Of a DNA stretch of 33,561 nucleotides, positions 1 through 33,561 are shown one piece after another. The position numbers and the translations under genes were made by a program. How positions within the stretch are numbered: the stretch's first letter is position 1; each line of letters begins with the position of its first letter. A model generated the notes under the pieces. That model did no database searches. It was not told the origin of the DNA and saw nothing but the letters and a program-made list of their open reading frames with translations. The stretch lies in the NCBI GenBank assembly GCA_002413185.1, contig DHWM01000197.1:2081-35641 (forward strand), given 5' to 3'. The DNA comes from Actinobacteria bacterium UBA5182 (GTDB lineage: Bacteria > Actinomycetota > UBA4738).

Positions 1-1088
1 ACGATGGTCGCGGTGACGTCGAGCGGCCCCGCCACCTCGTCGACCAGCGTTCCGACCTGGCCGGGGCGGATGTCATCGGGCGGGGCGTACTCGACGGGGG
101 AGCGTTCCCGTTCGAACAGCGGGACCCGGTGCTCCCCTCCGGTGGTGCGATCACCGAAGGCGACGTCGACGGGCGACCCGACCGCCCGGCGGTCACGGCC
201 CCGGGACCACAGGAGCCAGCCGATTCCGAGGAGCAGCAGGAGCAGCAGCCCCCCCGAGACGCCCGCGGTGAACGGCGTGACCGAGAAGGCTCGCCGGAAG
301 CTCCATCGCTCCTCCAGGACCGGATGCGGCGTCGGAACCAGACCGGTAGGGAAGCCGACCACGATGGTGAGCCCCTGGCCGGGGCCGAGCGCCCACGGGC
401 CGAACGGCGAGACGAGATCCTGCCGGAAGGTCGCAATCCGGCCGTCGACGTGACTCCGCGAGCACGGGAGGGCGGACCCGGTGTCACCTGCGAAGCAGGC
501 CACCCGGCCGATCGGTCCCGGTGTGGTGACGCGAACGGAGTTCGCCTCGATGGGGACCTCCCAGTACGAGCCGATGGCGTTCCAGTACAGCTCGTCGTGG
601 CCTGGAAAGCCGTTCAGGGCTCCCCGCACCCGGTAGGTGATCGTGTAGAGGTGCCGGCCCGAGATCATCTTGTCGGGGTCGCCGATCTGGATCCGCAGCA
701 GCGATCCCATCTTCTCGGTCTTGAACTGATCGGGCGTCCCAAGGGAGCCCCGCACCGAGATGTCCTCGATCGGATAGACGCGGTCATAGCGGTCGTCGAA
801 GGTCAGGCGGTCCGGGATGTCCCGGAAGATCCCATGGTGCTCGCGCGGGCCGAAGTCGTAGTCGATCCGTTCGACCACCACGATCGATCCGTCGTGCTGG
901 ATGGCGATGGAGACGTCGTAGGACCGGATGCGCTCAAACGTGAACGTGGGTGTTGCCTGGGCGGAGGCGGCCGTGGGGATCAGGGTCAGGACCGCGGCGG
1001 CGCCGAGGAACCTCCTCAGCGCCGTCCCCAACCGGCCACGAAAGCCCTTTCGGCACCTCCGGACAATGATCGCTGGCTTCCCGGGCAC
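1..1088 (-). CDS. DUF2207-like secreted/membrane protein; C-terminal part runs off the left edge
   Basis: The minus frame is open from the window edge. The translation starts with a signal-like LRRFLGAAAVLTLIPTAASAQA. It continues ERIRSYDVSIAIQHDGSIVVVERIDYDFGPREHHGIFRDIP and later has a hydrophobic LLLLLLLGIGWLLW segment, the pattern I associate with DUF2207. The start is either GTG 1088 or TTG 1031, and an in-frame TAG lies just upstream of 1088. Confidence 0.65.
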   Translation of the reverse strand, partial: MPGKPAIIVRRCRKGFRGRLGTALRRFLGAAAVLTLIPTAASAQATPTFTFERIRSYDVSIAIQHDGSIVVVERIDYDFGPREHHGIFRDIPDRLTFDDRYDRVYPIEDISVRGSLGTPDQFKTEKMGSLLRIQIGDPDKMISGRHLYTITYRVRGALNGFPGHDELYWNAIGSYWEVPIEANSVRVTTPGPIGRVACFAGDTGSALPCSRSHVDGRIATFRQDLVSPFGPWALGPGQGLTIVVGFPTGLVPTPHPVLEERWSFRRAFSVTPFTAGVSGGLLLLLLLGIGWLLWSRGRDRRAVGSPVDVAFGDRTTGGEHRVPLFERERSPVEYAPPDDIRPGQVGTLVDEVAGPLDVTATI

Positions 1089-30856: not shown

Positions 30857-31863
30857 TCAGCGGACGCACTGGAGCTTCGGCCGGCGGCCGCCGATCAGCC
30901 ATTCGGTCAGATAGACGTTGCCCTGGCTGTCCGCGGCGATGGCGTGAGGGCTGTTCAGGACCTCTGGACGCAGCGTGGGCGACCGAACCGGCTCGCCGGC
31001 TGGGCCTTCCGCATTCGGCCAGCCGGGTTTCGACGGCGCGGCGGCGTCTTCGAACAGGCGTGTCACCACTCGGTCTGCGCGGTCAAGGACGGTGATCCGC
31101 GGCGGCTTGAACTCGACGACGAAGAGCAGGTCGTCGATGGGGCAGAACGCGGTCGGCGAGGCGAGTTCGCCTTCGCCGACCACTCGCTTGAACACGCCAT
31201 CGAGGTCGTAGACCTGGACGCGCCCGTTCGATCGGCGATCCAGAGCTCCGCCTCGTCGCCGCGGCGGTCGATGAAGACGGCGTGCGGCCGATCGAACCTA
31301 CCGGCGCCCTCCTCGCCGGTGAGCGTGGAGATCTGCCGGCCGTCGGCTGAGAAGCGGTGAACCAGGCTCGACCCATAGCCGTCAGAGACCCAGATGTCGC
31401 CCCTGCCGTCGAACCGCGGCTCGTCCACGGCGACGTTCGTCGGGCAGTAAGCGCCACCGGCCTCGTAGGCGGCATGCGTGGGACGCGGAAGCGACATGAC
31501 GGTCGTGCCGTCGAGCGCGACCTTGACGACCGCAGCCCCCCTGTCGTCAGGCGCGGCCTTGTACTCGGCATGCGGCCGCATCTTCATGGTGGCGTCGGAT
31601 GCCCAGAGGAACGAGACGCCGTCCTCTACCACCAGGGTGAGCCCGTGTGCCTCGTCCAGTCCGCAGGGGACCGTTCTGCGGAGTTCACCCTCGAGCGAAA
31701 AGCACACCAGAGCGGGGTCGGAGGGGTGAAATGTGACCACCTCGTCCTCCGGAGTGACCACCATGCCCGCGTGCGGCCATGCGCGCCGCGTTTCGGGATC
31801 GTCGGGGAATCGTCCCCAGTCGTCGATCCACTCCCACTCGTAGCCAGCGACCTGGGTCGTCAC
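30857..31863 (-). pseudogene. NHL-repeat six-bladed-propeller (PAL-like) protein gene with one frame break
   Basis: GTG 31863 lies behind AAGGAGGA. Frame A runs ...GDIWVSDGYGSSLVHRFSADGRQ...RPHAVFIDRRGDEAELWIADR and frame B runs NGRVQVYDLDGVFKRVVGEG...PHAIAADSQGNVYLTEW. Adding one A to the AA run (plus-strand TT 31227-31228) restores the canonical ADRNGRVQVY repeat. Confidence 0.7.
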
Positions 31864-31929
31864 GGCGACATTCCTCCTTGCAGGCGTTCGGACGGACCAA
31901 TTACAGTCCGGCTCGATCGTTCGCTCAAG

Positions 31930-31958
31930 TTGACGAGGCGGTGGCCGCCAAGTATGCT
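31930..31958 (+). promoter_or_regulatory. sigma-70-like promoter for the HARE-HTH/PIN pair
   Basis: TTGACG (31930-31935), a 17-nt spacer, then TATGCT (31953-31958). The spacer contains GGCGG-N3-CCGCC. A GAGGTGA SD follows, 6 nt before ATG 31983. Confidence 0.5.
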
Positions 31959-31982
31959 GCATCTCGTCTGAGGTGATGAAGT

Positions 31983-32516
31983 ATGAATATGCAAGACCAG
32001 CTACGAGAAGCTGCGGCAGGACCTATCGAGAGTCCGGATGACGCAGAGAAGGTTCGAGAAGCCGCCGATCTCCTCGCCGCATACTTCCGCCTGGACGAGC
32101 GGGCGGCGCGAGTGCTGGCTCCCGAAGAGCCACCTACTGGGAAGACCGGCGGAGACCTCCGCGGAGCGACGCTTGACGATGCGGCAGAGCGGGTTCTGCG
32201 AGATGCCGGTGTGCCGCTCCACGCCAGGGAACTCGGTGCCCGGATCAAGGCGAGGGGGTGGCGCCATCCGCGCTCCCTGAATGCCCGTCCGGATCAGATC
32301 GTGTTCCAGCTCGCTGCGCGCCTCCCGAGGCAGCCTCACCGGTTCCGCCGGGTCGCCCCCAACACGTTCGCGCTGGCGAAGTGGGATCCGGGTGGAGCTC
32401 CAAATCGGCAGGCGCCGAGGGTGGCTCTGTTCCGCGGCCCGGGGTCTCCGATCGGTCGAACGATCGGAGAGAGCGAAGCGCCCGCCTCGGAGGGGGAGTC
32501 GGATTGGCGCTCGTGA
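31983..32516 (+). CDS. HARE-HTH (winged-helix) domain protein in antitoxin position
   Basis: In the 177-aa ORF, residues ~62-134 (ATLDDAAERVLRDAGVPLHARELGARIKARGWRHPRSLNARPDQIVFQLAARLPRQPHRFRRVAPNTFALAKW) fit the HARE-HTH pattern by eye. The N-terminus is an acidic helix and the C-terminal tail of ~40 aa looks disordered. Confidence 0.6.
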   Translation: MNMQDQLREAAAGPIESPDDAEKVREAADLLAAYFRLDERAARVLAPEEPPTGKTGGDLRGATLDDAAERVLRDAGVPLHARELGARIKARGWRHPRSLNARPDQIVFQLAARLPRQPHRFRRVAPNTFALAKWDPGGAPNRQAPRVALFRGPGSPIGRTIGESEAPASEGESDWRS

Positions 32517-32920
32517 TCGACACGGGCGTCCTCTATGCGGCTCTGGATGCGTCCGATCCTGATCACGAACCGTGTTCGGCCTTGCTCGGCGAGAGCACAG
32601 AACAGCTCGTCGTCCCTGCGCCGGTGTTCGTCGAGCTCGACTACTGGATCCGAAAGTTCGCGTCGGCCGACGTCTGGCTCGCCTTCTGCGAGGACGTGGT
32701 GGGCGGCGCGTACGCCGTGTACCCACTGGATGCCGAGTTGCTCGTCGAAGCCGCGCGGATCCAGGCGCGGTACGCGGACCAGCCAGTGGGATTGGTCGAC
32801 GCGGCCGTCTTCGCGACATGCGAGGTGCTGGGCGAGCGAAAGGTCGCCACGCTCGACCATCGCCACTTCGGCATTTTGCGGACGTCAGATGGCCGAGGGC
32901 TGGAAATCGTCCCGAACTGA
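32504..32920 (+). CDS. vapC: PIN-domain ribonuclease (VapC-like toxin)
   Basis: TTG 32504 lies 5-6 nt behind GGAGGGGGAG; alternatively GTG 32513 forms GTGA with the upstream stop. In LALVIDTGVLYAALD...VFVELDYW...GLVDAAVFATCE...TLDHRHF all four conserved acidic PIN positions are present. Confidence 0.8.
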   Translation: MALVIDTGVLYAALDASDPDHEPCSALLGESTEQLVVPAPVFVELDYWIRKFASADVWLAFCEDVVGGAYAVYPLDAELLVEAARIQARYADQPVGLVDAAVFATCEVLGERKVATLDHRHFGILRTSDGRGLEIVPN

Positions 32921-33120
32921 AGCGTGACCCCGTAGCGAGGCGCATCGGGACGCCGCCGGCAAGCTCAGGGGTTCGAGGCAGGATGAAGCGCCGCTTCAAT
33001 TCGGTCTCCCTTCGGCTCGGAATCCGAATGGGGCTGCTTTCCCCACTCAAAACCTGAACCTCGCCCGAGATGAGCTACACGTGGCCTGAGCAGGGGGAAT
33101 GCGCCCCTGACTCGCTAAGG

Positions 33121-33141
33121 CCTGAGTCCGAGACGCTCAAG
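33121..33141. promoter_or_regulatory. HAIR-like (HspR-associated inverted repeat) element upstream of lon
   Basis: CCTGAGT-N7-GCTCAAG has two mismatches to the HAIR consensus CTTGAGT-N7-ACTCAAG. It lies 77 nt upstream of the lon GTG. A TTGACG hexamer sits at 33180-33185. Confidence 0.5.
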
Positions 33142-33217
33142 GTTCAGTCCGTCCGGGAATAGCCTCTCGCCAGGTTCCGTTGACGGTCTTGTTGAGGGCC
33201 CGAGATAGGAGAGACAC

Positions 33218-33561
33218 GTGCCTGAACAGCTCGATACGAAGATCCTTCCTTTGCTTCCGCTGAACACCGGCGTCGTCCTGCCTGGCATGGTGGTCACGCT
33301 CACGCTCGAGACCCCCGAGGCTCGGGCGGCCGTGCACGCCGCCCGGACCGCCGAGGACACCCTCCTTCTGGTTCCGCGGCGGGAGAACGGGTCCTACGCT
33401 CGCGTCGGGACCGTCGCGCACATCGAGGAGATGGGGCGCACCCCCGGCGGGACCGAGGCCATCGTGATCCGCGGTCTCCACCGGGCCACCATCGGCTCGG
33501 GGATCGCCGGCACCGGCGACGCCACGTGGGTTCAGTTCGACCCTCGGCCCGACGACCCCGC
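33218..33561 (+). CDS. lon: Lon protease (endopeptidase La), N-terminal part; runs off the right edge
   Basis: GTG 33218 lies behind GATAGGAGAGA. (M)PEQLDTKILPLLPLNTGVVLPGMVVTLTLETPEARAAV...YARVGTVAHIEEM...EAIVIRGLHRATI is the LON substrate-binding N-domain signature. The frame is open to the window end. Confidence 0.85.
   Translation, partial: MPEQLDTKILPLLPLNTGVVLPGMVVTLTLETPEARAAVHAARTAEDTLLLVPRRENGSYARVGTVAHIEEMGRTPGGTEAIVIRGLHRATIGSGIAGTGDATWVQFDPRPDDP

Follow-up and report, generated by a model that had tools for sequence, protein, structure and literature searches.

What is a HARE-HTH protein doing in the antitoxin position, directly in front of an intact PIN-domain gene of the VapC type? 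The question is raised by two overlapping genes, here called A and B, on contig DHWM01000197.1 of Actinobacteria bacterium UBA5182, from which we analysed a stretch of 33,561 nucleotides (positions 2,081 to 35,641 of the forward strand; hereafter the window, whose own numbering is used throughout). The answer we favour, and consider likely, is that A and B form a chromosomal type II toxin–antitoxin cassette of the VapBC kind in which the antitoxin is a mosaic of a HARE-HTH domain and a VapB26-type tail. An earlier note, made from the letters of the window alone, had proposed a type II-like operon in which the antitoxin slot ahead of an intact VapC-type PIN gene is taken by a HARE-HTH protein, and profile searches, the predicted fold and the co-occurrence of the two genes all agree with that proposal. 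The layout is that of a type II system, with two small co-directional genes, the antitoxin candidate first, which overlap by 10–16 nucleotides in 42 non-identical junctions. Structure prediction and homology likewise give A the layout of an antitoxin, a DNA-binding-type domain followed by a disordered tail of a toxin-binding type. The parts of the pair are as follows.

31983–32516, forward strand: gene A, a 177-residue mosaic antitoxin candidate (helical hairpin, HARE-HTH and VapB26-type tail), an open reading frame (ORF) from ATG 31983 to TGA 32514–32516

31989–32117, forward strand: N-terminal helical hairpin of A, residues 3–45, a putative dimerisation module (AlphaFold2 model)

32169–32384, forward strand: HARE-HTH winged helix of A, residues 63–134, net charge +9 (Pfam PF05066, AlphaFold2, Foldseek)

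32403–32495, forward strand: VapB26-type toxin-binding segment of A (APRVALFRGPGSPIGRTIGE...), residues 141–171, within the disordered tail 135–177 (hhalign against the VapB26 family)

32504–32516, forward strand: 13-nucleotide dual-coding overlap, read W-R-S-stop in A and (TTG)M-A-L-V-I in B

32504–32920, forward strand: gene B, a 138-residue PIN/VapC toxin candidate, VapC26-like (Pfam PIN, PDB match)

Pfam analysis assigned B to the PIN family (PF01850, E 8.8e-12), and its single sequence match in the PDB was VapC26 of Mycobacterium tuberculosis (5X3T chain B, E 2.3e-21), with 36% identity over 135 residues and no gap. The active site of VapC26 consists of Asp4, Glu42, Asp97 and Asp116 (PMC5737657), which align gaplessly with D6, E44, D99 and D118 of B; these four residues are invariant in 13 aligned homologs, which bears out the earlier description of an intact PIN domain with all four acidic catalytic positions. 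The toxin-side binding surface is also largely retained: when the 18 groove residues listed for VapC26 (PMC5737657) were mapped onto B via the alignment, seven were identical and eight conservatively hydrophobic (15 of 18). VapC26 causes growth arrest in M. smegmatis, its cleavage site lies in the sarcin-ricin loop of 23S rRNA, and VapC phylogeny has predicted RNA targets before (PMC5175351). Judged by sequence, it is a reasonable guess that B shares this target.

HARE-HTH was the sole domain that Pfam identified in A (PF05066, residues 63–134, E 4.6e-7), with an alignment that spans model positions 2–71 of 71 and a score of 30.6 bits against a curated cut-off of 25.9; no AbrB, ribbon-helix-helix, Phd/YefM, Xre or MerR fold was found by this analysis. 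No NCBIfam model matched A or B, and hence no antitoxin family was assigned to A from that source. In an AlphaFold2 model of A, built from a 104-sequence alignment and with a mean predicted local distance difference test (pLDDT) score of 80, the folded part comprises residues 3–131. It begins with a hairpin of two helices (residues 3–12 and 18–45; block-mean pLDDT 92–98 over residues 1–40), in which L7, A21, A27, A28 and L31 are nearly invariant across the family and which, from the model, may serve to dimerise A. A flexible linker connects the hairpin to a winged helix composed of helices 64–75, 81–90 and 103–116 and a beta-hairpin at 121–131, and the tail that follows (residues 135–177) has a pLDDT of about 50 and is predicted to be disordered.

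A Foldseek comparison of A with solved structures supported the domain assignment. Most top matches were to the N-terminal domain of the RNA polymerase delta subunit (2krc, 8x6g_E, 9a6y and 2m4k), with probabilities of 0.96–1.0, an E of about 0.1 for this small domain, 18–22% identity and target-normalised TM-scores (template modelling scores) of 0.53–0.66 over residues 63–134, while the remaining top matches were other winged helices, such as the Zalpha domain of ZBP1. A PDB sequence-profile search with the full A family returned no match, the delta subunit included. The HARE-HTH core that the earlier note had suspected, and for which it had named PF05066, is therefore corroborated by a profile score above the curated cut-off and by a predicted fold that agrees with it. 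The net charge of +9 makes the winged helix compatible with nucleic-acid binding, and its recognition helix (QLAARLP) and a loop (GWRHPRS) are nearly invariant in the A family.

The disordered tail was likewise anticipated in the earlier note as a segment that could wrap the toxin, although its ancestry was not. Profile comparison indicates that the tail of A is homologous to the VapC-binding tail of VapB26, a ribbon-helix-helix antitoxin. The A-family tail has the consensus RPRxGLFxGPGxxIGRxxGE...WRSS, against RPRPRGGLYxGxxPIARRVDELLxGFGER for the C-terminal, toxin-binding part of the VapB26 family. When the two families were compared by hhalign, the tail segment was the sole part to be aligned (P 5e-4 with full profiles, 3.2e-5 with the tail alone), with a score of 25.4 that exceeds those of all 300 column shuffles (mean 9.6, standard deviation 2.2, maximum 19.7). 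The homology emerged from profile-versus-profile comparison only: a PDB search with the A tail profile alone gave one chance match (E 6), and the tail stayed unaligned when the VapB26 sequence by itself was compared with the A family by hhalign. Within the alignment, P145 and F150 of A correspond to P46 and Y51 of VapB26, and among the 104 A-family members F150 is invariant and P145 is kept in at least 90%. In the crystal structure of VapBC26, the VapB26 tail, which is unfolded when free, lies in a groove formed by helices 1–4 of VapC26, where it obstructs the active site sterically; the key contacts include Pro46 and Tyr51, of which Tyr51 has the largest effect when mutated (PMC5737657). The tail of A carries a net charge of −1. 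Altogether, A resembles an antitoxin of the VapB26 type in which a helical hairpin and a HARE-HTH domain have taken the place of the ribbon-helix-helix dimer, and it belongs to the VapBC26 subfamily by its tail only, the ribbon-helix-helix domain of VapB26 being absent.

The last codons of A are also the first codons of B. The TGA stop of A (32514–32516) overlaps the PIN frame by 13 nucleotides when counted from TTG 32504 and by 4 nucleotides when counted from GTG 32513; both candidate starts had been given in the earlier note, and comparison of 42 junctions identifies TTG 32504 as the homologous start in the window. The 42 non-identical junctions share the consensus NTG-GCG-CTC-GTC-CTA-GAC, which reads M-A-L-V-L-D in the PIN frame and W-R-S-S-stop in A, and the PIN start codon is GTG in 25 of them, ATG in 12 and TTG in 5. 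The choice of synonymous codons in this short stretch is biased. At 39 of the 42 junctions the PIN Ala is encoded by GCG, which preserves the Arg of A, and in an earlier subset of 15 loci it was GCG in 14, compared with 38% elsewhere in these genes (binomial P 1.2e-5). For Leu, the PIN frame has CTC at 36 of the 42 junctions and never CTG, which has a background frequency of 38%; CTG at this position would turn the Ser of A into Trp. The rare codons CTA and TTA occur at the junction only where they create the stop codon of A.

The bias at the synonymous site of the Ala codon indicates that Arg176 is selected in A itself. A free-standing C-terminal WRSS motif was considered and partly rejected, since the PIN start codon and the G-initial (Ala) codon after it together dictate the Trp, and only the Arg is independently selected. 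Many VapB antitoxins have a conserved Arg at the metal or active site of their VapC (PMC13373217), and by analogy W175-R176 of A may reach the acidic pocket of B. The junction offers a compact case of selection acting on two frames, in which the terminal Trp-Arg of the antitoxin is written over the Met-Ala-Leu of the toxin.

A and B do not stand side by side by chance. With protein A as the query, a search retrieved 183 word-indexed relatives, nearly all of 170–200 residues, featuring PF05066 and coming from Actinomycetota metagenome bins. Among 1.84 billion cluster representatives (50% identity), 43 clusters matched at E ≤ 1e-30 before the scores dropped sharply to generic HARE-HTH proteins, which shows that the A family is compact. 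Close homologs of A were present at 15 loci among 185,579 species genomes, and a PIN gene was found at all 14 genome loci that have downstream DNA, scoring 160–205 bits against the PIN protein of the window and starting 10–16 nucleotides before the stop of A. The same pair was present in 6 of 6 further contigs from an exact protein look-up, and a metagenome scan found the PIN gene at 48 of 48 close-A loci with at least about 420 nucleotides downstream. The eight metagenome loci that lack a complete PIN ORF have 22–399 nucleotides of contig past the stop of A, and at least two of these show the PIN start. The recurrent co-occurrence on which the original proposal depended is thus borne out, as every informative close-A locus has an overlapping PIN gene (21 genome or contig loci and 48 metagenome loci).

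A and B alone are conserved between these loci, with flanks that are non-syntenic and unrelated. The PIN protein is better conserved than A (61–75% versus 45–62% identity), and a toxin conserved above its antitoxin is the usual pattern in toxin–antitoxin systems. The distribution is patchy and the context variable, as for a mobile cassette. A wider role of HARE-HTH proteins as general PIN partners was rejected: at the genome and metagenome loci examined, distant small HARE-HTH ORFs never had a PIN gene alongside, and instead adjoin DDE transposases or unrelated genes.

The region upstream of gene A (31883–31982 in the window) holds the following features.

31930–31958, forward strand: sigma-70-like promoter-like site, with −35 TTGACG at 31930–31935, a 17-nucleotide spacer and −10 TATGCT at 31953–31958

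31937–31949, no strand: short inverted repeat GGCGG-tgg-CCGCC in the promoter spacer, 5-bp arms, a weak operator candidate from sequence

31970–31975, forward strand: Shine-Dalgarno sequence GAGGTG of gene A, read from sequence, 7 nucleotides before ATG 31983

The promoter that the earlier note had ascribed to the pair (TTGACG-17-TATGCT) is the single sigma-70-like consensus match within the 1.9 kb from 31500 to 33400, where 0.3 would be expected from shuffles, and a TTGnnn-16..19-TAnnnT site was seen 35–60 nucleotides 5' of gene A at most homologous loci. The inverted repeat reported in the spacer is present, but its arms are only 5 bp long, it was not listed by a repeat-finding program run on the region, and by itself it does not rise above chance for DNA of 69% guanine plus cytosine (GC), so that it carries no weight. 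In the family as a whole, 28 of 48 non-redundant loci have inverted repeats with arms of 5 bp or more in the last 55 nucleotides before gene A, compared with 15.1 ± 3.2 in shuffles, where the loci are related to each other and the shuffles are mononucleotide; the repeats differ in sequence from locus to locus. A class of 'NTCA..TGAN' palindromes (11 loci versus 1.1 expected) was defined post hoc and was not used as evidence. Autoregulation of the cassette at its own promoter is plausible. The AT-richer 5' end of gene A that had also been pointed out is real (53% GC over the first 60 nucleotides versus 69% for the window) but is ordinary at gene starts. A 21-codon out-of-frame ORF (31976–32041, forward strand, from ATG 31976; ATGAAGTATGAA...) can also be read from the sequence and overlaps the start of gene A.

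By its toxin and its antitoxin tail, the module belongs with VapBC26 of M. tuberculosis (Rv0581/Rv0582; 5X3T), whereas its DNA-binding half lies outside the classical VapB classes. The two systems share a homologous toxin (36% gapless identity, the same four acids and a largely conserved groove), the antitoxin tail motif PRxG[LM][FY]xG..I[AG]R, in which P46 and Y51 of VapB26 are P145 and F150 here, an antitoxin gene that comes first, and a tail that is disordered when free (a prediction in the case of A). They differ in the remainder of the antitoxin, as VapB26 is a 71-residue protein with an N-terminal DNA-binding ribbon-helix-helix dimer and A is a 177-residue protein with a hairpin and HARE-HTH, and in the extreme C-terminus, which is GFGER in VapB26 and a WR(SS) that is dual-coded with the PIN start in A. 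With canonical VapBC systems in general the pair shares an overlapping two-gene operon with its own promoter, a PIN toxin, a modular antitoxin and a toxin that is the better conserved partner, but the HARE-HTH module of A falls outside the AbrB, ribbon-helix-helix, Phd/YefM, Xre and MerR classes of VapB.

Other relatives are more partial. The RNA polymerase delta subunit RpoE of Firmicutes, the archetypal bacterial HARE-HTH protein, has the fold of residues 63–134, belongs to the same Pfam family and is also a small protein with a disordered tail after the HARE-HTH domain; A differs in having no polyacidic tail, a basic domain (+9), an extra N-terminal hairpin, an obligate pairing with PIN and an origin in metagenome-assembled genomes (MAGs) of Actinomycetota. 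VapKSC (PMC13373217) is comparable in that a VapC-type PIN protein is restrained by a non-classical globular partner with a C-terminal segment beside the active site. However, VapKSC comprises three genes, its kinase releases the toxin, and VapS binds mainly via a STAS domain that is not DNA-binding, while the present pair has two conserved genes only and a VapB26-type tail. HARE-HTH also occurs fused to restriction endonucleases, and for this winged-helix family a role in reading DNA or its state of modification has been proposed (PMC3417536), whereas A is not fused to a DNase, has no linked modification gene and is partnered by a separate RNase gene.

We infer the following scheme for the toxicity of B, its neutralisation by A, DNA binding and autoregulation, the lability of A and the RNA target. 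B would be a Mg2+-dependent PIN endoribonuclease related to VapC26, and A an antitoxin in three parts: a dimerising hairpin, a basic HARE-HTH domain and a disordered VapC-binding tail. Both would be expressed from one promoter and translationally coupled via the 13-nucleotide dual-coding overlap, with the HARE-HTH domain binding the promoter DNA of the cassette and repressing it. On folding, the tail of A would occupy the hydrophobic PIN groove, where Pro145 and Phe150 would act as Pro46 and Tyr51 do in VapB26, and its C-terminal Trp-Arg would extend into the acidic active site, thereby blocking it. Loss of a labile antitoxin would then free the RNase and stop translation.

Several points weigh against this scheme. 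The chief unexplained one is a mismatch between helix and operator: k-mer and half-site searches of 16–19 upstream regions gave no shared operator motif, and a near-invariant recognition helix without a common operator is unusual if A represses its own promoter sequence-specifically. In the delta subunit of RNA polymerase, the best structural match, HARE-HTH acts by binding the polymerase, not an operator. The tail homology is short, at 21–30 columns with hhalign probabilities of 31–73%. Finally, tblastn searches of plasmids and phages and a scan of IMG/VR did not find the module, each of 15 MAGs has one copy, and mobility of the cassette is suggested by its variable context only.

The near-invariant recognition helix without a conserved operator leaves room for a different role, in which HARE-HTH would act as a sensor (of DNA modification or foreign DNA) or as a dock on RNA polymerase and its ligand would control the release of the VapC26-like RNase, although we regard this as unlikely. 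A specific form of it is the defence-oriented module suggested in the earlier note, an abortive-infection sensor that would recognise foreign or modified DNA and release or activate the PIN RNase upon phage infection. Such a function would suit a domain that is fused to restriction-type nucleases and present in conflict systems (PMC3417536, PMC12839542), as well as a recognition helix whose ligand is something other than an operator, and a VapC with a non-canonical partner can indeed be anti-phage, for example in VapKSC (PMC13373217); at one locus (L030) the pair also lies among toxin–antitoxin genes and a truncated DUF2397 gene. However, no family of PADLOC-DB 2.0 matched A or B at E ≤ 0.01, the module was absent from the phage, plasmid and viral collections searched, and neither a modification enzyme nor a third conserved gene accompanies the pair at the examined loci. 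Most contexts are housekeeping (the window, L035 and L033), and the VapB26-type tail already accounts for ordinary neutralisation. The defence proposal is thus unsupported, and we consider it improbable.

We give slightly less credence to a non-toxic pair, in which A would be a transcription factor of the ordinary kind and B an RNase with a housekeeping or regulatory role, or a co-repressor, that does not inhibit growth, so that the operon would be no addiction or stress module. Its single copy in each of 15 MAGs with a close homolog, often among housekeeping genes, would be expected of such a pair, but a patchy presence (15 close-homolog loci in 185,579 species genomes) at non-syntenic positions argues against a core function. 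Moreover, VapC26, the sole solved homolog of B by sequence, is strongly growth-inhibitory (PMC5175351), B keeps the full catalytic tetrad, and A has the type of tail that blocks the VapC26 active site. The least probable arrangement, and a very unlikely one, is that the HARE-HTH domain docks on RNA polymerase as RpoE does in Firmicutes and tethers or releases the PIN RNase at transcription complexes. The structural matches that suggest it, most of them to the delta N-terminal domain and including delta in a complex with RNA polymerase (8x6g_E, 9a6y), are at the level of fold only, at 18–22% identity and a Foldseek E of about 0.1; the PDB sequence-profile search gave no delta subunit, the domain carries a net charge of +9, and the tail is VapB26-like with a net charge of −1 rather than the long polyacidic tail of delta. 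The toxin–antitoxin cassette with a mosaic antitoxin therefore remains our preferred reading.

The neighbourhood of the pair varies from locus to locus. One downstream gene of the window had been singled out in the earlier note.

33218–33561, forward strand: 5' end of lon, context only (PF02190 Lon substrate-binding domain, E 6.4e-15), 297 nucleotides past the PIN stop

The position of the module upstream of lon is correct, but a link between them is unsupported: among about 21 loci examined for context, lon lies downstream only in the window and in L032, a close relative and the nearest by Lon sequence, whose Lon N-terminus is 75–90% identical to that of the window, and lon was rejected as a conserved neighbour. 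Two HNH_2 endonuclease genes lie between PIN and lon in L032 (9004–13533), where lon was called in fragments and so is frameshifted. Other neighbours in the window include cellulase and glyoxalase genes, while L035 has a suf operon and L033 has glyoxalase and luciferase-like genes. Other toxin–antitoxin genes adjoin the pair in L001, L004, L007, L030 and L034. L030 (2119–12746) is a toxin–antitoxin-rich island with BrnT/BrnA, Phd-ParE, ImmA/IrrE-Xre with DUF3368 and the truncated DUF2397 gene; L034 (4895–7344) has three extra PIN ORFs and L001 also has extra PIN genes, whereas Doc-like and HipBA-like genes in L004 and L007 were judged by ORF reading. Rfam and tRNA scans of the region in the window found no RNA genes. 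The gene upstream of the pair (30857–31962, reverse strand) is NHL-repeat-like by reading and is split by a frameshift near 31195–31215, with one frame ending ...EAELWIADRTG and the other continuing ...NGRVQVYDLDGVFKRVVGEG; Pfam gave no match at E ≤ 1e-3, and the split could reflect either a pseudogene or a sequencing error.

A few HARE-HTH proteins outside the family proper were also encountered. Distant HARE-HTH ORFs of about 105–170 residues, mostly from Desulfobacterota, occur at loci L020–L029 (for example L022:808-2690 and L025:3962-5555), where most are followed by an ORF of about 380–480 residues; those in L022 and L025 are DDE transposases (Pfam PF13546, PF01609), and HARE-HTH may here be an accessory ORF of an insertion-sequence family. 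In another group (P0412–P0500, about 140–170 residues), the HARE-HTH domain sits between an N-terminal coiled-coil and a short acidic end, and the VapB26-type tail is absent. On a single 7276-bp metagenome contig (JGI sample 3300043313), the protein P0043 joins an MNT nucleotidyltransferase domain to an A-type protein, which shares 59% identity with A across 94% of A and retains the PRxGxF..IGR portion of the tail; the gene that follows is a HEPN gene in the place of PIN. This contig may represent a recombinant of two toxin–antitoxin systems or an assembly chimera, and the fusion hints at further shuffling between such systems.

Outside the original HARE-HTH description, a literature search turned up no report of HARE-HTH as an antitoxin domain; four papers mention both terms, but not in that sense, and PF05066 occurs in none. 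The relatives of A are labelled in databases as hypothetical, 'HB1/ASXL restriction endonuclease HTH' or 'winged helix-turn-helix domain-containing protein'. The exchange of DNA-binding modules among antitoxins is already known, as are VapC proteins with unusual partners such as the STAS protein VapS (PMC13373217). If the cassette works as proposed, it would add HARE-HTH to the DNA-binding domain families of type II antitoxins and would provide an unusually clean natural case of antitoxin modularity, in which the VapB26 tail has been kept beside a VapC26-like toxin while the DNA-binding half was swapped. Should the HARE-HTH domain prove instead to be a sensor, the pair would amount to a VapBC chassis turned into a two-gene abortive-infection module that senses nucleic acids. 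The analysis gives a testable function to about 180 proteins labelled 'hypothetical' or 'winged helix-turn-helix domain-containing', and it offers a small bacterial HARE-HTH protein for direct measurement of DNA binding by a domain that matters in eukaryotic ASXL and in restriction systems.

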